Shown in pieces: positions 14,054-53,005 of a DNA stretch of 64,000 nt (positions within the stretch are counted from its first letter, which is position 1; each line of letters opens with the position of its first letter). This DNA comes from Deltaproteobacteria bacterium (lineage in GTDB: Bacteria; Desulfobacterota; GWC2-55-46). The notes beneath the pieces are model-generated. The model was not told the origin of the DNA and searched no databases. It was given only the letters and a program-made list of their open reading frames with translations. Position numbers and translations under genes: made by a program. The stretch lies in contig JABTVA010000008.1 in the NCBI GenBank assembly GCA_015075075.1, positions 50,215-114,214 of the forward strand, read 5' to 3'.

Positions 14054-15921
14054 ATGGCGGTAAAGAAGATAGGCGAGCTCCTGGTCGAATCAGGGCTCAT
14101 AATGAGGACCAGCTCGAAGAGGCCCTTGCCGCGGGCAAGGAGAACAAGGGCACCAGGACAGGCGCCCTGCTCGTAAAGCTCGGGTACGCAACGGAGATTG
14201 ACATAGCCCAGACCCTCTCCTACCAGGTCGGCATCCCCTTCGTGGATATGGCTTCCACGACCGTGGACCCGGAGAGCATCAAGCTGGTCAACGAAAAGCT
14301 CGCCAGGAAGTACCTCCTTGTGCCGCTCTACCATGACAAGAAGGTCCTGAGGGTCGCCATGTCGGACCCGCTGAACCTGAACGCCATAGACGACCTGAGG
14401 TTTTCGACGGGCTTGGAGATACAGCCCTTCATCTCCACGCTCTCGGACATCAACGCCGCGATATCGAGGCACTATCACCTGAACGAGCCCATGATGGACG
14501 AGATACTGGGCGATTTCAAGAAGGACAGGTACGTCGAGGTATTCCACGAGTCCGAATCGAGCAGGGACCTTTCCGAGCAGGTAAAGAAGTCCGCCGCCCC
14601 GCCCATCATAAAGATGGTCGATTCCATCCTGATACACGGCTTCGACAACAGGGCGAGCGACATCCACATCGAGCCGCAGGAAAAGGGCGTGAAGCTCAGG
14701 ATACGGGTGGACGGGCTCATGCGCGAAACCAAGCAGCTCCCCAAATGGGTGCAGGGGCCTGTCGTTTCGAGGATAAAGATAATGGCCCGGATGGACATAG
14801 CCGAGAGGAGGACGGCCCAGGACGGCAGGTTCAAGGTGCGGATAGGGGAAAAGAGCATGGACGTGAGGGTCTCGTCGCTCCCGACCCAGCACGGCGAGAC
14901 GATAGTCATGCGGCTCCTCGACCCCAAGGCCGCCATGATAGACATAGAGGGCATAGGGATAGGAAAGGGTGAGCTCGACCGGGTGCTTGATATCATAGAG
15001 CGCCCCCAGGGGGTCGTGCTCGTCACCGGCCCCACTGGCTCGGGAAAGACCTCGACCCTTTACGCCATGCTCGCCCGCATAAAAAAGGAAGAGATAAACA
15101 TAATCACGATAGAGGACCCGATAGAGTACGAGCTCAAGGACGTAAACCAGGTGGCCGTGAACGACAAGACCGGCCTGACCTTCTCGTACACCCTGAGGTC
15201 GGTACTACGGCAGGACCCGGACGTCATACTCGTCGGCGAGATGAGGGACGCGGAGACGGCCACGATCGCCCACCAGGCCTCCCTTACGGGGCACCTTGTC
15301 TTCTCGACCCTGCACACAAACGACGCGGTATCATCGGTAACGAGGCTCCGTAACCTCGGCGTGCCTTCGTACATGATAGCGTCGGCCCTGAACGGCATAG
15401 TGGCCCAGAGGCTCGTGAGGATGATATGCAAGGGGTGCAGGGAGGAGTACACGCCGACCGGGCAGGAGATACGGAAGGCTGGGCTCAAGTGGTCCGGGAA
15501 GAAGCTCTACAGGGGCGCGGGATGCAGCCTCTGCGCCAATACCGGCTACTCGGGGAGGACCGGGATATTCGAGATAATATCGGTAAACGGCGCGATAAAG
15601 AACCTCATAGCCGCCGACGCCCCCGAGCACGAGATAATCGCCGCCGCCCTGGAAGGCGGCATGACCCCCATGCACATGGACGGGCTCGATAAGGTCTCTT
15701 CCGGCATAACCACGCTCGAAGAGCTCGCTCGGGTCATATACATGGCCAAGGAACCGGTATGCCCGGTTTGCCTTAAGACCGTACCGGCCGGTACGGAGAG
15801 ATGCGGCGAATGCGAAGCTGCCAAGGCCGCCGTCTGTCAATGGTGCGGGAAGGGACGGGAGGAGGGCTGGGTAGCGTGCCCCTGGTGCGCGCACGAGTTC
15901 GCCGCCGCCCCGCTATCATGA
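14054..15921 (+). CDS. MshE/GspE/PilB-family secretion ATPase with N-terminal c-di-GMP-binding MshEN-type domain and extra C-terminal double zinc ribbon; apparent -1 frameshift near 14100
   Basis: Walker A 'VLVTGPTGSGKTSTL' and the canonical tetracysteine 'CKGCREEY...CSLCANTGY'. Upstream, in another frame, 'MAVKKIGELLVESGLI|TEDQLEEAL...LVKLGYATEIDIAQTLSYQ' matches the MshEN motifs. The intact ORF starts at 14242. The C-terminus adds 'CPVCLK...CGECEA...CQWC...CPWCAHEF'. Confidence 0.75.
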
Positions 15922-19912: not shown

Positions 19913-22114
19913 TCAATCCGGCCTCTTTGAGCGTTCGAGCGCCTCTGAAACGGCCTTCAAGAGGCTTCCTACCGAATAGGGCTTGGGGAGAAAGCTGTAG
20001 CCTTTTTCCTTGAGGAGAGGCCTCGATGTCTCCTCGGCGTAGCCGCTCGTTATTACCACCGCCATGCCGGGTTTTTTCGTAAGGAGCTCCTCGGCGAGAT
20101 TGAAACCGCTCTTGTCCTTGAGGACAAGGTCCGAAAATAAGACCTTGAGGTCCGGTTCCCTCTGGAACGCCTCCATCGCCTCTTTCGCGTTCCCGGCCTC
20201 GACGACCTTGAACCCGTTATTCGCAAGCGCTGCCTTCGTGAACTCCCTTACCGGCAGGTCGTCCTCGACGAGAAGGACCTTTTCCCCTCCGCCCTTCAAG
20301 GGCTTAACCTCGCGCGCCTCCTTCTCCGGGAGTGCGGCCGGGAAATAGATCTTGAAAATGGTGCCCCTGCCCGGTTCGCTCTTGACAGATATCCACCCCC
20401 GGTGCTGCTTGACTATGCTGTAGACTATGGAGAGCCCGAACCCCGTCCCCTTGCCGGCCTCCTTGGTGGTAAAGAAAGGCTCGAATATCCTGGACAGGAA
20501 CTCCTTCTCAATGCCCACGCCCGTGTCGGCCACGGTAAGGCAGACCGCCTCCCCGGGGCGGGCGTCAGGTACTGATTTGGCCCGGCGCTCGTCTATGAAG
20601 ACGTTTTCCGTCTTTATGGAGAGCGTCCCGCCCGCGGGCATGGCGTCCTTCGCGTTCAGGGCGAGGTTCATGATGACCTGCTCGATATTGCTCTCGTCGG
20701 CCTCTATGGTACAGAGGTCGGGGGCCAGGTCGGTCGAGATGGTGATGTCCTCCCCGATTATGTGGGTGATCATGACCAGGAGCTCATCGACGAGCTTGTT
20801 CACGTTGAGCGGCACGAGCTCGAAGGGCTGGCCGCGGCTGAAGAGGAGGAGCTGCCGGGTAAGCTTGGAGGCGAGCATCACGGAGTTGACAATGCCGTCA
20901 ACGCGCGGGTATGCAGGGTCGGACTTCTTCATTTCCTCGAGGGCCAGCTCTGCATTGCCCCTTATCGCCGTGAGGATGTTGTTGAAGTCGTGCGATATCC
21001 CTCCCGCGAACCTCCCTATTGCCTCCATCTTCTGCGACTGGCTGAGGCGCGCCTGTATGAGCTCCCTTTCGCGTTCGGCGCGCTTCCTTTCGGTTATGTC
21101 CCGGACCATGCCCGTGAAGTGGAGCACACCGCCGAGGGTGAAGTTATTGAGGGCGAGCTCCAGCGGGAATATCTCTCCGTTTTTCCTCAAGCCTTCGAAT
21201 TCGTGTATCCTGCCCTGTACCGTGCTCTCCCCGGTCCTCAAAAACCTTTCAAGCCCCTCCTTGTGGGCCTTCTTGTATTTGTCAGGGACGAGGACCCCGA
21301 CGTCCTGCCCGATGAGCTCTTCCCTGGGATATCCGAATATCCGGGCCGCGCTCTCGTTGCAGTCGATTATCCTGTCCTTTGCGTCGGCTATGATTATGCC
21401 GTCGAATGCGGTATTGTGGACGAGCCGGTACCTGGTCTCGCTCTCCTTCAGGGCCATCTCGGTCTTCTTCCTCTCGGTTATGTCCTCGCCGGAGCTCAAT
21501 GTGCCGGCTGCGATGCCGCCCTCCATCAGCACGGCGTTGTGCCACAGGACGACCCTTTCCTCGCCGCTTCTCGTCAATACCGGGTTCTCGAAATAGCCCT
21601 CGGCCTCCCTGCCGCCGGAGATGAGCCTGGCGAACTCGAACCGAACCTCTTTTTTGAGCCTGGCCGGCAAGAAGTTCTCGACCCAGTCCCTGCCGAGGAC
21701 CTCTTCCTCCCGGTACCCGAGCGTCTGGCAGGCGTTCCTGTTTATAAGGCGCACCTTCCCTTCCCGGTCAAGGACGACCACCATCACCCCTGCCACATCG
21801 AGGTACTTCTGGAACCGGTCCCTTTCCCTCGAAGCCGTCCTCTCGGCCTCCTCGCGTTTTTCAACGAGCGCCATGAGCGGCCTGAATATGAAGAAATAAA
21901 GGATGGGCGAGAGGATGAGCACAAGGAGCGGGGCGTCTATGAAGATGGCATGGACCGGCTCAAGGAAGTCCCTGTAGAAATAGAAGAGCATCATTATAAA
22001 GGCCTCGACGAAGAAAACCGAAAGGACCAGTATGACGATTATCTTTATCGGCGAATAGGTCCGGGCTTCCGTCCTCTGCTCTGGCCTGCCCTGGCGTGAG
22101 GTCTTCTCTTCCAT
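19913..22114 (-). CDS. Hybrid sensor histidine kinase (TM - PAS x2 - HisKA - HATPase_c - receiver)
   Basis: 733 aa. H-box 'SHDFNNILTAIRGNAELA', an ATPase G-box, and a C-terminal receiver 'KVLLVEDD...'. An N-terminal TM segment is present. Confidence 0.85.
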   Translation of the reverse strand: MEEKTSRQGRPEQRTEARTYSPIKIIVILVLSVFFVEAFIMMLFYFYRDFLEPVHAIFIDAPLLVLILSPILYFFIFRPLMALVEKREEAERTASRERDRFQKYLDVAGVMVVVLDREGKVRLINRNACQTLGYREEEVLGRDWVENFLPARLKKEVRFEFARLISGGREAEGYFENPVLTRSGEERVVLWHNAVLMEGGIAAGTLSSGEDITERKKTEMALKESETRYRLVHNTAFDGIIIADAKDRIIDCNESAARIFGYPREELIGQDVGVLVPDKYKKAHKEGLERFLRTGESTVQGRIHEFEGLRKNGEIFPLELALNNFTLGGVLHFTGMVRDITERKRAERERELIQARLSQSQKMEAIGRFAGGISHDFNNILTAIRGNAELALEEMKKSDPAYPRVDGIVNSVMLASKLTRQLLLFSRGQPFELVPLNVNKLVDELLVMITHIIGEDITISTDLAPDLCTIEADESNIEQVIMNLALNAKDAMPAGGTLSIKTENVFIDERRAKSVPDARPGEAVCLTVADTGVGIEKEFLSRIFEPFFTTKEAGKGTGFGLSIVYSIVKQHRGWISVKSEPGRGTIFKIYFPAALPEKEAREVKPLKGGGEKVLLVEDDLPVREFTKAALANNGFKVVEAGNAKEAMEAFQREPDLKVLFSDLVLKDKSGFNLAEELLTKKPGMAVVITSGYAEETSRPLLKEKGYSFLPKPYSVGSLLKAVSEALERSKRPD

Positions 22115-35621: not shown

Positions 35622-36425
35622 ATGAGAAGGAATAAGAGGTCCAGGCCAAAGGCGGAGCCCCCGGCAGTCAGCCGGAACATATCGATAGTGCTGGTAGAGC
35701 CGCAGAGCTCAGGCAACGTCGGAAGCACTGCCCGGGCCATGAGAAACACGGGTTTTTCCGACCTGGTGCTCATAAACCCGTGCGAATACAAAAATAACGA
35801 GTCCTATTCAATGGCCTGCAAGGCCGACGGCGTGCTTGAGACGGCCCGGGTCTTCCCTGACCTTGAAAGCTACATCCCCGAGCCGCGCGTCCTCGTCGGG
35901 ACGACCCGGAGGATAGGCAGGCACAGGTACCCGGTCCTGACCCTTTCCGAGGCGGTCCCGGAGATCCTCAGGCTTGCGGCTTCCAACAGGGTGGCCATAC
36001 TCTTCGGCAGGGAGGACAAGGGGCTCCTTAACGAGGAGATACCGCTTTGCGACATGCTCGTTGAGATACCCACATCCGACGATTACCCCTCCATAAACCT
36101 CTCGCACGCGGTCTTTACGGTCTGCCACCACCTCTACACCGCCGCCGCGCCCAAGGCGCCTGCCATAAAGGTAGCGCCGAGAGGCGAACTCGAGCGGATG
36201 TACGAGCACATGGAGAGGACGCTCCGGGGAATAGGCTACGGCGACAAGGGCGGGGAATATCTCCTCGAAGCAATGATGCGGAGCTTCAGGCGCCTCTTCG
36301 GCAGGACAGGCCTCATGGAAAAGGAGGTCAACATGCTCCGGGGAGTATTCACGCAGATAGAGGCCCGGACGATAAACCCTGAAGAGGACGGGGGAAACAG
36401 GCATGCAGGAGCAGGAGCTCAATAG
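35622..36425 (+). CDS. SpoU/TrmH-family RNA 2'-O-methyltransferase (TrmJ-like)
   Basis: SPOUT motifs 'VLVEPQSSGNVGSTARAM', 'ILFGREDKGL' and 'SINLSHAVFTVCHHL'. Confidence 0.75.
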   Translation: MRRNKRSRPKAEPPAVSRNISIVLVEPQSSGNVGSTARAMRNTGFSDLVLINPCEYKNNESYSMACKADGVLETARVFPDLESYIPEPRVLVGTTRRIGRHRYPVLTLSEAVPEILRLAASNRVAILFGREDKGLLNEEIPLCDMLVEIPTSDDYPSINLSHAVFTVCHHLYTAAAPKAPAIKVAPRGELERMYEHMERTLRGIGYGDKGGEYLLEAMMRSFRRLFGRTGLMEKEVNMLRGVFTQIEARTINPEEDGGNRHAGAGAQ

Positions 36426-37320
36426 AAAAATGCTCGAAAGCGCTTCCGCGGCCCTGAAGGACGCGAGGGCCGAAGCGCTCCTCCTTTTTGTCGACGCGGC
36501 GGAGGACAAGACCTTCTGGCGGAGGTCCAGGGCCAGGAAAAAGTTCATCCTCGTCACGCAGGACGCCGAGACCGCCTCGGCCCTTGAATGCTTCAGAAAA
36601 GAGGTCAAGGCCATCCTCAAGCTCCCTGTCGTAAGGCTCACCAGGGTAGGCCAGGTAAAGCTCTCCCTCATCATGGGCGTGACCGAAGGGCTTATAAAAA
36701 GCTCGGACAAGGTCGTATGCGTGGCGGGCCTCCCTGTCCACGGCGTCCTCGATACCCTCATGATAATAGACCTCGAGCGCGAGGCCGAGGTCTTCAGCGC
36801 CATGGGCATCTCAATGGACCTTCTGAAAAAGGTCAAGCCAGAGGTGCTCGAAGCGGTCTTGAACATCGCGCTCGAGCTATCGAGCGAGGGCCGCGAAGGG
36901 AGGACCGTCGGCACGACCTTCGTCATAGGCGACAACGACAAGGTCATGGAGCTATCGCGTCCGCTCATAATGAACCCCTTCAAGGGCTATCCCGAGGAGG
37001 CCCGGAACATACTCGACGAGGCGGTCCACGAGACCATAAAGGAATACTCCCTCCTTGACGGCGCGTTCGTCATAAGGGAGGACGGGGTCGTCATGGCCGC
37101 CGGCATCCACCTGGACGCTGCCCTCAAGGAAGAGGGGCTCATGCCTGGGCTCGGCTGCAGGCACATGGCAGCCGCGGGCATAACCGACGTGACCGGGGCC
37201 GCGGCCATAACCATCTCCGGCTCAACGGGCATAGTCCGAATATTCAGGAAAGGCAAGGTCCTCCTCGAGCTTGAAAAGCCGCTCGCCAAGCCCGTAAACA
37301 AATCCGTATCCGCGCCTTGA
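36403..37320 (+). CDS. Diadenylate cyclase (DAC/DisA_N) domain protein with N-terminal uncharacterised domain
   Basis: C-terminal 'DGAFVIREDGVV..AAG' and 'LGCRHMAAAGITDVTGAAAITISGSTGIVRIF'. These correspond to the DGA and (T)RHRAA motifs of c-di-AMP synthases. Confidence 0.6.
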   Translation: MQEQELNRKMLESASAALKDARAEALLLFVDAAEDKTFWRRSRARKKFILVTQDAETASALECFRKEVKAILKLPVVRLTRVGQVKLSLIMGVTEGLIKSSDKVVCVAGLPVHGVLDTLMIIDLEREAEVFSAMGISMDLLKKVKPEVLEAVLNIALELSSEGREGRTVGTTFVIGDNDKVMELSRPLIMNPFKGYPEEARNILDEAVHETIKEYSLLDGAFVIREDGVVMAAGIHLDAALKEEGLMPGLGCRHMAAAGITDVTGAAAITISGSTGIVRIFRKGKVLLELEKPLAKPVNKSVSAP

Positions 37321-37689
37321 GCCTTGCGCTTGACAAGCGGCTCCAAGCCGGGTAGGGTGGACACAGCCCACCATTTCTCTGAGGTACAGGGCGACAGAAG
37401 AATCTCGTATTCAAGCCTCGTCGAAAAAGACCTTATAACGCGCTGCCGCGCTCTTTTTGGGCATGAGGCTCCGCGCCCTTTCCGCCTCCATCCTCCGGGC
37501 TCGGCCCTTAAGTCGCTCGGCCTTCGGCCTCGCTCCTAACAGCCCCGCCTCGCCCGCCCCGCCCCCATCCCCATGTTCGCTCCGCCTCATGCCCCCGGGG
37601 TTGTTTAAAAACAAACCAGCGCCTTCCTTGAGCTTGACAAGCGGCTCATGGAAATGCAATCATCATCCTGGAAATAGAAATGACATGTC

Positions 37690-37845
37690 CTGGTCAAGGG
37701 AATCCCGTGATCCGCCTGGGTGCGGAGAATCGGGAACGGACCCGCCACTGTGAGCGGATACGAAACCCGCACGAGCCACTGGCCTTAAGGCCGGGAAGGC
37801 GCGGGGAGTAGGTTGTTAATCCGCAAGTCAGGAGACCTGCCAGGA
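37690..37845 (+). promoter_or_regulatory. Cobalamin (AdoCbl) riboswitch
   Basis: 'AAGGGAATCCCGTGATCCGCCTGGGTGCGGAGAATCGGGAACGGACCCGCCACTGTGAGCGG' matches the 5' consensus, including the GCCACTG core. The B12 box 'AAGTCAGGAGACCTGCC' lies at 37825-37841. Confidence 0.8.
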
Positions 37846-37911
37846 TATGCCTCACGGATCTTCGATGGTAAAGAAGGTGAGGGCGGTTGCACTGGTTTTT
37901 CGAGTCTCCGC

Positions 37912-47625: not shown

Positions 47626-48674
47626 TGAAAGGGCCGGGATAGCCGTATTCGCGGTGACCCAAAGGGGGCTTAAGGTCTCCAAGAGGCTTGAAGCCGCCCT
47701 TAACGGCGTCAAGGTCTTTTCACCGGAAGAGCTCAAGGACAAGGGCTTGAGGAAAATGGCCGCTTTTGCCTTCAAGCGCTCCGGGGCGCTCGTCTTCGTC
47801 TCTGCGGCGGGCATTGCGATAAGGGCCATAGCCCCGCTCGTCAAGGCCAAGCACCTCGACCCCGCGGTCGTGGTCGTCGACGAGCGGGCGCGTTTCTCAA
47901 TAAGCCTCCTTTCCGGCCACCTCGGCGGCGCCAACAGGCTCGCAGCGGAAATAGCCGCCGCGATCAGGGCGACTCCGGTCATAACGACGGCGACCGAGCT
48001 ATGGGGCCTCCCCTCGGCAGAGGATATCGCGGGGGCCTTCTCGCTCTCGATCGAAAACCCGGGCGGCATAAAGGCCGTAAACTCCGCCATACTGGGAGGC
48101 AGGACCGTCCATGTGGTGGATACCGACATGGCCCGGCTCAAGGCCATTAAGAAGCGGTTCGGGAAGGGCGGTTTCAAATTCACGAAGGGCGCGCCCCGGC
48201 GGCTAAAAGAGGGCGAGGCAATAATACGCGTAACGAGCGGGGCCCGGAAAAACTCCGGTCCGGAAGCAAGGCGTACCCTGATATTTAGGCCCAGGGATGT
48301 CGTCGCGGGCATAGGCTGCGTGAAAGGGCGTCCCTAAAGAGGAATTGAAAAGCCTCAGGGCCGCTCTGAGGAAAGTCGGTATATCGCCGCTTTCGATAAA
48401 GGGCTTCGCTACGATAGAGCTTAAGAGGGGCGAAAAGGGGATAACGGCGCTCGCCAAGGAGATGCGGGTAAGCGTTGAGTATTTCGGGAGCGCGCGGCTT
48501 AAAAAGGTAAAAACCCCTTCTCCGCGCTCCGTTTTCGTAAAAAAGATAACAGGCACGTGGGGGGTGGCCGAGCCTGCCGCCCTCATCTCATCAGGGGCAA
48601 AGGAGCTATGCTTAAGGAAGATAAAGCGCGGCAGGGTGACGGTGGCGCTGGCAAGGGCGCCGTTTACATCATAG
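47609..48674 (+). CDS. cbiG: Cobalt-precorrin-5A hydrolase CbiG, split by an apparent +1 frameshift near 48330
   Basis: N-terminal and middle CbiG domains in 47609-48337 ('...GIGCVKGRP*'). The C-terminal domain continues in another frame at 48345-48674 ('...EELKSLRAALRKVGISPLSIKGFATIELK...'). Confidence 0.65.
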
Positions 48675-49411
48675 GCATAGGGCCGGGAGGGCCCGGGCAC
48701 CTTACCGGAAGGGCCCTTGAGATGATCGAGGCCGCCGACTGCGTCGTAGGCTATACGAGATATGTCGGCCTCATTAAACACCTCACAGAGGGGAAGAAGG
48801 TCTTCTCAACGGGCATGACCCATGAGGTCGAGCGCTGCGCCCAGGCGATCGAGTTCGCCAGGGAAGGGAAGAAGGTGGCGGTCGTCTCCTCGGGCGACGC
48901 GGGCATATACGGGATGGCGGGGCTCGTATTCGAGCTCCTTGCCGCTTCGGGAAACGAGGAGATGGAGATAGAGGTAGTCCCTGGAGTCCCGGCCTTTGTC
49001 GCGGCGTCGGCCCTTTTAGGCGCGCCCCTCATGCACGACTTCGCGTCCATCTCGCTTTCAGACCTTCTTACTGACTGGAAGGTCATAGAGGAAAGGCTCG
49101 ATGCGGCTGCCCGGGCCGACTTCGTCCTCGTGCTCTATAACCCGAAGAGCTCTAAAAGGGTCGAGGGCCTCGGCAAGGCCCTTTCCATCATAGGACGCCA
49201 CAGGAAGGGCTCGACCCCGGTCGGGATCGTCCGTAACGCCTCGCGCGCCGACGAAGACGCGGTTTTGACTACCCTTGATAACGTCAGCGCCCTATACGAC
49301 AGGATAGACATGCTTACCATCCTCATAATAGGGAATTCATCCACCTTCTTAGCGCTGGGGAGGATGGTTACGCCGCGCGGCTACAGGCTCCAGGGAGGGG
49401 CCGGGGGCTGA
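48608..49411 (+). CDS. cbiH: Cobalt-factor III / precorrin-3B C17-methyltransferase
   Basis: 'VYIIGIGPGGPGHLTGRALEMIEAADCVVGY' methylase signature. The start is uncertain (ATG 48608 or a downstream GTG). Confidence 0.8.
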   Translation: MLKEDKARQGDGGAGKGAVYIIGIGPGGPGHLTGRALEMIEAADCVVGYTRYVGLIKHLTEGKKVFSTGMTHEVERCAQAIEFAREGKKVAVVSSGDAGIYGMAGLVFELLAASGNEEMEIEVVPGVPAFVAASALLGAPLMHDFASISLSDLLTDWKVIEERLDAAARADFVLVLYNPKSSKRVEGLGKALSIIGRHRKGSTPVGIVRNASRADEDAVLTTLDNVSALYDRIDMLTILIIGNSSTFLALGRMVTPRGYRLQGGAGG

Positions 49412-50583
49412 TGCCGCTTTTCGACCGGGTAATCATTATAGTGTTCGACGGCCTGGGAATGGCGAGCTCCCTGACGCGAAGGCGCAGGCGACGAAGGCCC
49501 CATACGCTCGACAACACCTCCCGCGCGGTCAACGGGCTCAAGGCGCCTGTTCTCGCATCGCTCGGCCTCGGGCACATCGAGGGCGTAAGCGAGATACCGC
49601 GCGTTGAGAGGCCTGCCGCCTCCTTTGGCCGGATGCGCGAGGCCTCGCCCGGGAAGGACACCGCGACCGGACACTGGGAGATGGCGGGGGTCGTGCTCGA
49701 TAAGCCCTTCCCGGTATTCCCCCAGGGCTTCCCGCCCGAGATAATGGAATCGTTTACGAACGAGACCGGCTGGGGCTGGCTCTGGGGCAAGACCGCCTCG
49801 GGCACCGACATTATCGAGCGCTTCGGCGAGGAGCACCTTAGGACCCGCAAACTCATAGTCTACACCTCGGCTGACAGCGTCTTCCAGATAGCCGCCCACG
49901 ATAGCGTGCTGCCCGTGGAAGGACTATACAGGGTATGCGAAAAGACGAGGCTCATTGCTGACTCCTACAATATCGGGCGCGTCATAGCGCGCCCGTTCAC
50001 CGGTCCGCCCGGGGCCTTCACAAGGCTCCCGGCAAGGAAGGACTTTTCGGTCCCGCCGCCGCACGAGACCCTCCTCGACAACATAGCCGAAGCAGGGCTC
50101 GATGTGACGGGCATCGGAAAGATCGGCGACATATTCGTCCACAAAGGCATAACCAGCGAGGTCCACACATCGAGCAACGACGACGGCATGGACAGGACCA
50201 TCGAGGCGATGGAGCGGAAGTCGCGCGGGCTCGTATTCACGAACCTCGTGGACTTCGATACCTACTACGGCCACAGGAACGACGCCAACGGGTTCGCGGA
50301 GGCCCTGGGCCGCATGGATGCCCGCCTCCCTGAGATAATGGAAAGGCTCGGCCCCCGCGATGTGCTTTTCATTACCGGGGACCACGGCTGCGACCCCACG
50401 ACCCCCTCGACCGACCATTCAAGGGAGCATGTACCGCTACTCGTATACGGCGATGCGGTCCGGCCCGGAGTTGACCTCGGCACAAGGCAGACATTCGCAG
50501 ACCTGGGTGCGACGATCGCCTCCGCGCTCGGGGTAAGAGCCCCCAGGAACGGAATTTCTTTCCTCGACCATATCCTCAAGTAG
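49411..50583 (+). CDS. deoB: Phosphopentomutase, with a local frame disruption at ~49455-49500
   Basis: 'TGHWEMAG' and 'ITGDHGCDPT' signatures. The aberrant 'SSLTRRRRRRRP' stretch is replaced by DeoB-like 'GELPDAKA...' in the +2 frame. Confidence 0.8.
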   Translation: MPLFDRVIIIVFDGLGMASSLTRRRRRRRPHTLDNTSRAVNGLKAPVLASLGLGHIEGVSEIPRVERPAASFGRMREASPGKDTATGHWEMAGVVLDKPFPVFPQGFPPEIMESFTNETGWGWLWGKTASGTDIIERFGEEHLRTRKLIVYTSADSVFQIAAHDSVLPVEGLYRVCEKTRLIADSYNIGRVIARPFTGPPGAFTRLPARKDFSVPPPHETLLDNIAEAGLDVTGIGKIGDIFVHKGITSEVHTSSNDDGMDRTIEAMERKSRGLVFTNLVDFDTYYGHRNDANGFAEALGRMDARLPEIMERLGPRDVLFITGDHGCDPTTPSTDHSREHVPLLVYGDAVRPGVDLGTRQTFADLGATIASALGVRAPRNGISFLDHILK

Positions 50584-50722
50584 CTGTTCTTATTATATTT
50601 TTAAACCTGCAGGCACAACCATCCCGTTTTTCCTGAGACTTCCCTTGATTTTTTTACGATATGGTACTAAGCTATGTGACTCGCTATAGCATATGCTTGG
50701 GCCTAAGGGGGGATGGCTGGAT

Positions 50723-51166
50723 ATGGGTCCTGATGATATCAAGCGTTTGCGGTATTTATTCGGGTGGTCGCAGGAGAGGCTGGCGCGGGAGCTGGGGGTC
50801 AGCTTCTCGACGGTTAACAGGTGGGAGAAGGGCAGGTCAAGGCCGAGCCCGCTGGCAATAAGCACATTGGCAACTCTGGGTGCGGGCTTCTCGGTGAACA
50901 AGAGGTCGTCACCGAGGTTCGCCTCCGGGCTTCCGCTGGATTTTAGAATAGCGGGCCATGCGGTCTCTTTCAGCTCGGTAATCGAGAACATAAGCTCAGG
51001 GGGGCTCATGTTCAATACCGCCGAGGAGCTTGGCCCGGGAGACCTGCTGACCCTCGGGTTCAGCCCGGACAGCGGCCCGCAGAGGTTCCTCGATGCGGAT
51101 GTGGTCTGGGTAAGGGAAAACGGCGGGAGCAGGCGCGTCGGGGTGCGCTTCCACCCGGGGCTTTGA
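50723..51166 (+). CDS. XRE-family HTH fused to a PilZ domain (putative c-di-GMP-responsive regulator)
   Basis: HTH 'LRYLFGWSQERLARELGVSFSTVNRWEKGRSRPS'. PilZ motifs 'RSSPR' (RxxxR) and 'ENISSGG' (D/NxSxxG). Confidence 0.65.
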   Translation: MGPDDIKRLRYLFGWSQERLARELGVSFSTVNRWEKGRSRPSPLAISTLATLGAGFSVNKRSSPRFASGLPLDFRIAGHAVSFSSVIENISSGGLMFNTAEELGPGDLLTLGFSPDSGPQRFLDADVVWVRENGGSRRVGVRFHPGL

Positions 51167-51208: not shown

Positions 51209-52585
51209 ATGTTGAAGGAAGGCAGCATCAGCCTCGACAGGCAGGGGCGCATAATAAGGTTCAGCAACAGCCTCGAGGAGATGCTCGGCTACTCGCCGGA
51301 CGAGGTGATGGGAAGGGAGTTCTCCATCTTTGTCCCGCCAGGAGCGGAATCCCCTGTAGAGGCCTTTCTCAGCGGCCCCGAGGAGGAGCCGCACCACGCG
51401 TCCAGGAAGACCGGCATACTCCGGAAGGACGGGACTCTCTCCGAGCCGTACATGTCAATACACCCTTTGAGGGACCGCACGGGCGCGCTCTATTCCGTCC
51501 TCCTTACGCTCTCTGTCAGGAAGAGCGGCCTTCCTGCCTTCCTTACCGAGGAGTTCAGGCGCATATTCAAGTTCTCCAACGACGGGGTCGCCATAACCGA
51601 CCGGGACGGCTCGATAATAGACGTAAACCCCGCTTTCCTCGAGACCTACGGCTATCAAAGGCACGAGGTCCTTGGAAAGAACCCGAGGATACTCAAGTCC
51701 TGCCATTCCACAAGGGACCTCTATGAGAGGATGTGGCAGGACATACTCGACCCCGCGAAAGGCTTCTGGAGGGGCGAGATAATCAACATGGCGCGGGACG
51801 GCTCCGAGGTGCCGGTGCTCCTTTCGATAAACGCGATAAAGGACGAGCACGGGGATATAAGGAACTTCCTCGGCATAACCTTCAACATGACGAGGGAGAA
51901 AAAGCTCGAGAAGCTCCGGAAGATGTACATCGACCATATCGTCCATGACATAAGGGGCCCTCTTACCTCGATATCCATAAATTCCGAGCTCCTACTCATG
52001 GGCCAGGAGCTTCCTGAAAAGGCCAGGAAGAAGCTGGACGTTATCCTCTCCTCGGCCCAGAGGATAGAGTCCATGACCTCCGACATACTCGATTTCAGCA
52101 GGGCCGAGAACGGGAAGCTCGTTTTGAGGAGGGAGGCCGTAATGCTCTCGGAAACAGTCAGGGACGCGGCCCTTCCTTTCGAGGGCTCGGGGAAGAAGCT
52201 CCTCGTCAATGGCGCGCCCATGTCCGACGGGGCCCTCGATTTCGAGGTCTTCGCGGACGAGGACAAGCTGAGGAGGGTCATATACAACCTCTTGAGCAAT
52301 GCCTTCAAGCACGCCTCCGAAATCGTGGACATCTCGGCCGAGGCCGGCGCCGAGGGCCTCAGGTTCACGGTCTGGAACGACGGGAGGGGCATTGCCCAGG
52401 AGGAGGCGGAAAGGATCTTCGACGCCTTCTTCCAGACCGCCGAAGGCGTAAAGACCGGCGGGGCAGGGCTGGGCCTTAGCATCGTCAAGAGCTTTGTAGA
52501 GGCCCACGGCGGAAGGGTCTGGGTCGAGGCCGGAAAAGAGAGGGGAGTTACCTTCGGCTTCACGATACCTTTAGCAGGATGTTGA
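51209..52585 (+). CDS. Cytoplasmic PAS-PAS sensor histidine kinase
   Basis: Two PAS segments, H-box 'HDIRGPLTSISINSELL', and N/G boxes 'YNLLSNAFKHA' and 'GGAGLGLSIVK'. No TM helices. Confidence 0.85.
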   Translation: MLKEGSISLDRQGRIIRFSNSLEEMLGYSPDEVMGREFSIFVPPGAESPVEAFLSGPEEEPHHASRKTGILRKDGTLSEPYMSIHPLRDRTGALYSVLLTLSVRKSGLPAFLTEEFRRIFKFSNDGVAITDRDGSIIDVNPAFLETYGYQRHEVLGKNPRILKSCHSTRDLYERMWQDILDPAKGFWRGEIINMARDGSEVPVLLSINAIKDEHGDIRNFLGITFNMTREKKLEKLRKMYIDHIVHDIRGPLTSISINSELLLMGQELPEKARKKLDVILSSAQRIESMTSDILDFSRAENGKLVLRREAVMLSETVRDAALPFEGSGKKLLVNGAPMSDGALDFEVFADEDKLRRVIYNLLSNAFKHASEIVDISAEAGAEGLRFTVWNDGRGIAQEEAERIFDAFFQTAEGVKTGGAGLGLSIVKSFVEAHGGRVWVEAGKERGVTFGFTIPLAGC

Positions 52586-52715: not shown

Positions 52716-52849
52716 TCGACACCCTGTTAGAGGGGGCGAGCTTAAGCGCGCCTTGACTCTTACGCATCCTCCGTGTTAACATTTTTTACCGAAGGGCCGG
52801 TTTCTCTCTCAATATAGGCCCCGGGTATTAGATTTCCTAAAATCAAATA

Positions 52850-53005
52850 GAAACGATCTCCGAGCCATCCTGCCTAAAGCCGGTCCTTTTCATGGCCGCG
52901 CAACGGGGGGTGGCCGATAGGGCCCTGCTGGAAACGGTTTGGCCTCCCCACTGGAAAGGAGATTGACAGTGCCAACCCCTTTCCGTGGCGGTTGGTTTTT
53001 TTTTG
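52850..53005 (+). promoter_or_regulatory. Molybdenum-cofactor (Moco) riboswitch-like leader with terminator
   Basis: 'CTCCGAGCCATCCTGCC..AAAGCCGG...GGAAACGG...GGCCTCCCCACTGGAAAGGAGA' matches hallmark blocks of the Moco RNA motif. It is followed by hairpin 'CCAACC...GGTTGG' plus T9, immediately upstream of modABC. Confidence 0.55.

Follow-up and report, generated by a model that had tools for sequence, protein, structure and literature searches.

A small HTH-PilZ fusion protein predicted to act as a c-di-GMP-responsive transcription regulator in uncultured Deltaproteobacteria

Overview

A 64,000-nucleotide (nt) stretch of DNA from a Deltaproteobacteria bacterium (assembly GCA_015075075.1, contig JABTVA010000008.1, positions 50,215 to 114,214; hereafter the window) encodes, at positions 50723 to 51166, a protein of 147 amino acids (aa) in which an XRE-type helix-turn-helix (HTH) domain is fused to a PilZ domain. 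The HTH-PilZ protein is probably a one-component transcription regulator that responds to cyclic di-GMP (c-di-GMP); the binding of both c-di-GMP and DNA is predicted, and the likeliest target is the promoter of its own gene.

In the mechanism proposed here, the XRE-type HTH would read DNA and the PilZ barrel would read c-di-GMP, with an RxxxR "switch" in the short flexible linker between the two domains. Linker residues 55–65 would be flexible in the ligand-free state. When c-di-GMP is bound, R61 and R65 would wrap around the ligand and press it onto N89, S91 and G94 of the barrel. Since the RxxxR motif starts only seven residues past the last HTH helix, ligand binding would have to fix the HTH relative to the barrel. 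In a passage of PMC10333796 that cites Benach et al. 2007, the RxxxR loop of VCA0042/PlzD is presented as a ligand-driven switch between domains. The ligand may also change the pairing of two subunits, and with it the binding of the protein to a palindromic operator. The outcome would be autoregulation, most simply repression, of a two-gene unit made up of the HTH-PilZ gene and the gene of a cytoplasmic PAS-PAS kinase. The direction of control, with the ligand as co-repressor or as inducer, cannot be inferred.

The gene and its two domains

The gene, its ribosome-binding signal and the domains and motifs of its product are as follows.

50705..50712, + strand: Shine-Dalgarno-like sequence AAGGGGGG, 10 nt 5' of the ATG at 50723, read from the sequence
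50723..51166, + strand: HTH-PilZ gene, an open reading frame (ORF) of 147 aa plus stop, with Pfam HTH_3 and PilZ both above cut-off, an identical NCBI protein and homologues that share the start methionine
50738..50872, + strand: XRE-type HTH, residues 6–50 (Pfam HTH_3, 46.5 bits, cut-off 23)
50897..51157, + strand: PilZ domain (PF07238), residues 59–145 (55.8 bits, cut-off 22.5; profile positions 1–87 of 102)
50903..50917, + strand: RxxxR motif R61-S-S-P-R65, in the low-confidence linker that follows the last HTH helix, read from the sequence
50987..51004, + strand: (D/N)xSxxG motif N89-I-S-S-G-G94, read from the sequence

The protein has the sequence MGPDDIKRLRYLFGWSQERLARELGVSFSTVNRWEKGRSRPSPLAISTLATLGAGFSVNKRSSPRFASGLPLDFRIAGHAVSFSSVIENISSGGLMFNTAEELGPGDLLTLGFSPDSGPQRFLDADVVWVRENGGSRRVGVRFHPGL. 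An alternative in-frame ATG at 50693 would lengthen it by 10 residues to 157 aa; the start at 50723 is the likely one since homologues begin at the methionine of MGP... and AAGGGGGG stands 10 nt before this ATG. An identical product is on deposit (MBE7415172.1 / MCL4873034.1) under the name "PilZ domain-containing protein", so that the gene has been annotated automatically, yet remains unstudied. The gene is real, given that full-length homologues with 35–79% identity occur in dozens of independent assemblies.

The first-pass annotation of the window, made by reading the letters and translations, had described an HTH fused to a PilZ domain with both c-di-GMP-binding motifs. Pfam bears out both domains, both motifs are present in the sequence, and the PilZ score is more than 30 bits above its hidden Markov model threshold. 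An AlphaFold2 model was built on a 34-member family alignment and had a mean predicted local distance difference test score (pLDDT) of 87.3. The model presents a four-helix HTH, a low-confidence linker that holds the RxxxR motif, and a six-stranded barrel. Neither a sequence-profile search of the PDB nor a Foldseek search of the PDB found both domains in one solved chain.

The N-terminal domain is a true XRE/HTH_3 domain. A second Pfam family, HTH_31, also scores above its cut-off (34.6 vs 27 bits), and the four helices (residues 3–13, 17–24, 28–36 and 43–54) were modeled with pLDDT values of 89–96. Profile searches of the PDB matched the domain to HigA2 (E = 3.5e-6), MBF and P22 C2, and Foldseek matched it to HigA2 with a root-mean-square deviation (RMSD) of 1.9 over 57 columns and 35% identity. 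The recognition helix SFSTVNRWE is invariant across the family alignment, and the invariant HTH residues comprise R10, Q17, E18, A21, R22, E23, S27, F28, T30–E35, P41 and A45.

By sequence and fold alike, the HTH is closest to those of HigA2 antitoxins and of YiaG-like short HTH proteins, from which it might be supposed that the HTH-PilZ protein is the antitoxin-like member of a toxin-antitoxin module with a HigA2/MqsA/YiaG-type HTH. XRE antitoxins of this kind are paired with a toxin and have no PilZ sensor, whereas no small toxin-like ORF lies beside the HTH-PilZ gene; its neighbors are the phosphopentomutase gene deoB (476 bits) and a histidine kinase gene. The gene is chromosomal and in stable synteny, and the C-terminal domain is PilZ rather than a toxin-binding segment. 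A role as an antitoxin is already close to excluded.

The C-terminal half was not recognized by sequence in the PDB, where a search gave nothing significant (E >= 0.45) and only weak matches to the non-binding Xanthomonas PilZ structures 3dsg and 4f48. A search by fold was needed as a result. Foldseek matched the barrel to c-di-GMP-bound PilZ domains, namely those of BcsA (4p00), a Pseudomonas aeruginosa PilZ (4xrn), PA0012 (8u0i), Alg44 (4rt0, 28% identity), MotI (5vx6), PlzA (7mie), VCA0042 (2rde), YcgR (5y6g) and MrkH (5kgo). For many PilZ structures the Foldseek probability was 1.00 with an RMSD of 2–4 over approximately 90 columns, and the structure prediction called for by the first-pass annotation is in agreement with its domain assignment. 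In the model, linker residues 57–60 have a pLDDT below 50, the six β-strands span residues 71–143, and a C-terminal helix is absent.

The residues expected to contact the ligand are strongly conserved. Both arginines of the RxxxR motif, R61 and R65, are invariant in the 34 aligned family members, and the full set of invariant residues in the PilZ part of the alignment is R61, R65, G94, G106, W129, G140 and F143. The [DN]xSxxG motif occurs in strict form in 65 of the 73 family members and, if the serine may be glycine or alanine, in 72 of 73. As judged from the alignment, both halves of the protein are under purifying selection, the ligand-contact residues included. Two inverted repeats within the coding region (50890–50916 and 50986–51013) are short and were treated as chance.

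Distribution of the family

The fusion is rare, as the first-pass annotation had supposed of the architecture, and the family is small. Approximately 73 clusters (90% identity) with HTH_3 and PilZ at full-length coverage were found among 5.8 billion clustered proteins, and every cluster with a named organism came from a Deltaproteobacteria or Thermodesulfobacteriota metagenome-assembled genome (MAG). When 1.84 billion representatives at 50% identity were searched with a profile, only about 30 proteins of 150–185 aa matched over their full length in a single stretch; the other strong profile matches were proteins of tandem HTH repeats. Across 185,579 species, with one genome each, about 30 loci contained a full-length relative, all of them from uncultured members of the Deltaproteobacteria/Thermodesulfobacteriota lineage. 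These loci are given below with the prefix L, and individual proteins with the prefix P.

The proteins of tandem XRE-type HTH repeats are unrelated to PilZ. They include P0124 (4162 aa, 32 matched stretches), P0121 (525 aa, 7 HTH_3 domains), P0135, P0133 and others, and their architecture is unusual.

One MAG, OFTM298, contains four HTH-PilZ paralogues in different contexts (L020, L021, L023, L030), which suggests a lineage-specific expansion of this type of regulator. A second group of the family (paralogues L003–L010 and L013) is also found in a different gene context. From a reading of the sequences by eye, we take the neighbors in this group to be di-haem-cytochrome-like, secretin-like and tRNA-modification (TilS)-like genes. 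Of the PilZ-only proteins, those most closely related are multi-PilZ, PilZ-Hsp70 and PilZNR-PilZ proteins, with no other DNA-binding fusion among them.

A candidate operator upstream of the gene

A short palindrome was first spotted when the upstream regions of orthologues were compared, and its family consensus, TGYTATARCA, is a candidate autoregulatory operator. The sites in the window, together with the promoter-like sites of three orthologous loci, are listed here.

50645..50673, + strand: weak promoter-like element TTGATT-17-TAAGCT, identified by eye and tentative, having failed a strict promoter scan; the palindrome starts 8 nt after it
50682..50691, no strand assigned: palindrome CGCTATAGCA, candidate operator, with one mismatch to TGYTATARCA, 41 nt 5' of the start codon
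Locus L025: promoter-like site TTGTCA-17-TATAAT (11 of 12 consensus positions)
Locus L014: promoter-like site TTGACA-17-TATATT (11 of 12 consensus positions)
Locus L015: promoter-like site TTAGCA-17-TATAGT (9 of 12 consensus positions)

The association of the palindrome with the gene is apparent at the level of the family. The 137 kb of orthologous loci contain TGYTATARCA in exact form 10 times, in every case 44–192 nt upstream of an HTH-PilZ start; copies with one mismatch elsewhere in these loci are no more frequent than the background rate. An unbiased scan was also performed in which all 1,024 possible 10-bp palindromes, with at most one mismatch, were sought in the upstream regions of 13 lineage representatives and compared to 300 dinucleotide shuffles. 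The palindrome TGCTATAGCA was present in 9 of the 13 upstream regions, while the maximum over the shuffles was 5 (reached once) and the usual value was 2–3. The palindrome stays with the HTH-PilZ gene in loci where deoB or the kinase gene is absent (L011, L012, L016). Within the window, CGCTATAGCA is the sole match to the consensus at one mismatch or fewer; with one match in 64 kb, the palindrome is not a general promoter feature.

The position of the palindrome is suggestive of repression. In L025, L014 and L015 it begins exactly 2 nt past the -35 hexamer, within the 17-nt spacer of these strong promoter-like sites. Elements similar to the tentative one in the window were seen by eye in L001 (TTGATT-17-TATTCT) and L002 (TTGATT-17-TATGCT), with the palindrome 8–9 nt after them. 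A promoter spacer and the sequence just past a core promoter are both classic positions for a repressor. Since TGYTATARCA lies in or just past the core promoter of the orthologues, the HTH-PilZ promoter itself is the most likely target of the protein.

A half-palindrome-like sequence, (A/T)GCTAT(G/A)TG(A/G), is found at 50670–50680 (+ strand), where it overlaps the tentative -10 element and precedes the full palindrome by 12 nt, and likewise in L001 and L002. It may be a second, weaker site of the kind found in tandem operators.

Two other identities for the palindrome were considered and rejected. It does not fit an extended -10 element (TGnTATAAT), since positions 5–6 are conserved as GC/AC rather than AT, and since in L014, L015 and L025 it sits in the spacer of a separate and better promoter. 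A ModE site was considered given the modABC genes nearby and the resemblance of CGCTATA to what we take to be a ModE half-site; no copy was found upstream of modA in any locus, and modA has a molybdenum/tungsten cofactor (Moco) riboswitch of its own.

The transcription unit and the adjacent kinase

The genes and signals that flank the HTH-PilZ gene are listed below.

48557–49411: cobJ/cbiH, upstream of the HTH-PilZ gene (316 bits)
49411–50583: deoB phosphopentomutase, upstream of the HTH-PilZ gene (476 bits)
51209..52585, + strand: PAS-PAS-HisKA-HATPase_c histidine kinase of 458 aa (Pfam), starting 42 nt 3' of the HTH-PilZ gene
52753–52782: promoter-like site before modA, preceding the Moco riboswitch
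52846–52977, + strand: Moco riboswitch RF01055 (58.5 bits), directly 5' of modA (52985)

The first-pass annotation had placed the gene directly upstream of a cytoplasmic PAS kinase, and this holds: the kinase sequence opens straight into a PAS domain, and no hydrophobic N-terminal stretch was seen by eye. The genes modA, modB and that of an ABC ATPase follow the kinase gene. No terminator-like site was found in the 42-nt gap between the HTH-PilZ gene and the kinase gene and, with a separate riboswitch and promoter-like site before modA, the transcription unit likely consists of these two genes. The kinase gene is thus probably co-transcribed with the HTH-PilZ gene.

The gene order cobJ-deoB-(HTH-PilZ)-kinase-modAB is repeated in related genomes. 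In 12 related loci an orthologous kinase gene lies directly 3' of the HTH-PilZ gene on the same strand, with gaps of 3–42 nt where these are readable, and in L011, L016 and L012 it is missing. As the whole neighborhood is syntenic, the adjacency of the pair is by itself weak evidence of a functional link.

These observations bear on a different role for the protein, that of an adaptor. The PilZ barrel could dock in a c-di-GMP-dependent manner on the co-transcribed kinase to give a signaling unit without a classical receiver domain, in which either the binding of the HTH to DNA is controlled by the state of the kinase or the output of the kinase is controlled by c-di-GMP. In its favor, the short-gap pair is kept in the 12 loci even though the kinases are only 48–70% identical to that of the window, and no response-regulator gene adjoins the kinase gene. 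There is also precedent for PilZ proteins that act on such partners: HapZ acts on the kinase SagS in Pseudomonas aeruginosa (PMC10333796), and TssZ acts on the transcription factor HinK (PMC10912698). However, the cobJ-deoB-(HTH-PilZ)-kinase-modABC region is wholly syntenic, so that the adjacency may reflect only vertical inheritance. Moreover, the three loci without the kinase gene keep both the HTH-PilZ gene and the palindrome, and paralogues occur in other contexts without a kinase. A phospho-acceptor for the neighboring kinase was sought in the PilZ part of the protein and rejected, since no Asp, His, Ser or Thr there is invariant in the family alignment. Taken together, an adaptor role is unlikely.

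A more specific proposal, in which the HTH-PilZ protein and the kinase form a dedicated pair without a receiver, the c-di-GMP-loaded barrel docking on the kinase and PilZ taking the place of the receiver, is improbable. If it were true, an XRE repressor bound to DNA would directly integrate the level of c-di-GMP with what the PAS domains sense, be it redox state or a ligand.

Elsewhere in the window, 19913–22114 (- strand) encodes a PAS-PAS histidine kinase of the hybrid type, with a receiver domain at its C-terminus. The window therefore contains two cytoplasmic PAS kinases (51209 and 19913–22114), neither with an adjacent DNA-binding response regulator. A second riboswitch, the cobalamin riboswitch RF00174, is located at 37674–37858 (+ strand, 108 bits), upstream of an ORF that starts at 37887.

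Cyclic-dinucleotide context

Two further genes had led the first-pass annotation to suggest that cyclic-dinucleotide signaling is rich in this organism.

14242–15921, + strand: T2SSE and MshEN ATPase (Pfam MshEN, 70.7 bits)
36403–37320, + strand: diadenylate cyclase with an N-terminal DacZ_P sensor (DAC 76.7 bits, DacZ_P 62.4 bits)

Pfam confirms the domains of both proteins, and the suggestion stands to that extent; the support that they lend to c-di-GMP signaling is weak. No c-di-GMP motif of the RLGxxLLxxG type was seen by eye in the N-terminus of the ATPase, so that the name of the MshEN domain alone does not imply c-di-GMP sensing. A DAC domain makes c-di-AMP, not c-di-GMP. The diadenylate cyclase has a DacZ-type architecture, here in a deltaproteobacterial genome. 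A motif scan of the long ORFs of the window found no GGDEF and no convincing EAL or HD-GYP signature. The window gives little evidence on c-di-GMP turnover.

Points that weigh against the prediction

Several observations count against the HTH-PilZ protein being a c-di-GMP-responsive autoregulator. The first is that no enzyme that makes c-di-GMP is visible among the long ORFs covered by the motif scan. The second concerns the barrel itself, from which the C-terminal helix found in canonical PilZ domains is missing, the chain ending 4 residues past the last strand. A third is found in the AlphaFold2 model, where a predicted template modeling score (pTM) of 0.55 makes the relative placement of the two domains unreliable. 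The remaining points concern the palindrome. Its copy in the window is mismatched once and is unremarkable there by itself, 2 chance matches being expected at such stringency, and 10 bp is short for the palindrome of an XRE dimer. The consensus TGYTATARCA is also absent upstream of the paralogue group L003–L010 and L013, in which the recognition helix (SFSTVNRWE) is identical.

With respect to length, sites of similar compactness are used by the controller C-proteins of restriction-modification systems and by BldD. With respect to the paralogue group, all nine members have a different, 16-bp palindrome, TGTGAC-N4-GTCACA, approximately 130–230 nt upstream of the gene start (at ~5840–5860 in L008, for example). 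By our own count some 60 nt separate it from the likely start site downstream, which is where an activator would typically bind, and we take this palindrome to have the CRP-type form TGTGA-N6-TCACA. The same helix alongside a different palindrome implies either that the paralogue group is not autoregulated or that TGYTATARCA belongs to another factor. A sigma-54 promoter was considered for this group and rejected by eye on account of an unfit GG/GC spacing.

The missing helix was examined across the family. An early end 4 residues past the last strand is common to the nearest relatives P0002 and P0254–P0256, and all other family members have 17–23 extra C-terminal residues, modeled as a helix in the orthologue P0004 (H149–161). 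The PilZ C-terminal helix lies outside the ligand site and makes no contact with the ligand in solved complexes. For this reason its absence was not counted against c-di-GMP binding, and its loss could instead affect stability or subunit pairing. The canonical domain is taken here to be a barrel with a C-terminal helix, as described by Galperin and Chou (bioRxiv 10.1101/814665).

The loss of this helix in the window protein and its nearest relatives, the weak sequence-only matches to non-binding Xanthomonas PilZ structures, and the fact that no GGDEF gene was seen in the window would all fit a plain XRE repressor in which a PilZ-derived barrel no longer senses c-di-GMP and serves in dimerization or as a scaffold, like the non-binding Xanthomonas PilZ. 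Non-binding PilZ domains are characteristically without RxxxR and (D/N)xSxxG. In the HTH-PilZ protein, however, neither motif is damaged and R61, R65 and G94 do not vary across the family, a pattern that would be difficult to account for if no ligand were bound; the helix, for its part, is not in contact with the ligand. A non-sensing barrel has a low probability, and a c-di-GMP-responsive regulator remains the preferred explanation.

Comparison with known regulators

The closest working model for the action of the HTH-PilZ protein may be BldD of Streptomyces, in which an XRE HTH is combined with a c-di-GMP-binding domain and the ligand drives dimerization and DNA binding to a compact pseudo-palindrome (PMC4151990). 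The two proteins are alike in being small (approximately 18 kDa or less) and in having an N-terminal XRE HTH followed, after a flexible linker, by a C-terminal domain that senses c-di-GMP, a function predicted here for the HTH-PilZ protein. In contrast, the C-terminal domain of BldD consists of helices and uses RXD-X8-RXXD motifs to bind c-di-GMP as a tetramer (PMC4151990), whereas that of the window protein is an all-β PilZ barrel with RxxxR and NxSxxG. There is no sequence relationship between the two beyond a generic HTH.

MrkH of Klebsiella pneumoniae is a transcription activator that uses a canonical PilZ domain as its c-di-GMP sensor, and its structure (5kgo) was among those matched to the barrel. 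It differs in having no HTH: the N-terminal domain of MrkH is another, PilZ-like barrel (PilZN2), and its contact with DNA is through a non-canonical surface (bioRxiv 10.1101/814665; PMC12564702), whereas the window protein has a classical XRE HTH. PlzA of Borreliella burgdorferi, an xPilZ-PilZ protein and also a structural match (7mie), binds DNA and RNA in a c-di-GMP-dependent manner (PMC10333796). PlzA has no HTH and binds nucleic acids through its N-terminal domain, which is PilZ-like but degenerate, and this binding is not known to be specific for an operator. In VCA0042/PlzD, YcgR and MotI (2rde, 5y6f and 5vx6), an RxxxR motif likewise occupies the linker before the PilZ barrel and the ligand re-orients the domains, but what precedes the PilZ barrel is a PilZN-type barrel with flagellar motor proteins as its targets and not a DNA-binding domain.

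Significance

No description of an XRE-HTH/PilZ fusion was found in open-access papers and preprints, and Galperin and Chou, in their survey of PilZ proteins (bioRxiv 10.1101/814665), make no mention of fusions to an HTH or another DNA-binding domain. In a 2025 review, MrkH is given as the transcription factor based on PilZ, and further PilZ fusions are described as targets still open; MrkH, which binds DNA without an HTH, is the only well-studied example (PMC12564702). The HTH-PilZ protein is an unstudied combination of two well-understood modules, and no new principle is involved.

The operator candidate and the defined two-gene unit make the binding, the structure and the direction of control directly testable, and the protein is a possible compact part for synthetic c-di-GMP reporters. 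The fusion is found only in uncultured Thermodesulfobacteriota, where the biology of c-di-GMP is almost unexplored. If the prediction is true, then of all switches from c-di-GMP to transcription that are predictable from sequence, the 147-aa HTH-PilZ protein would be the simplest.

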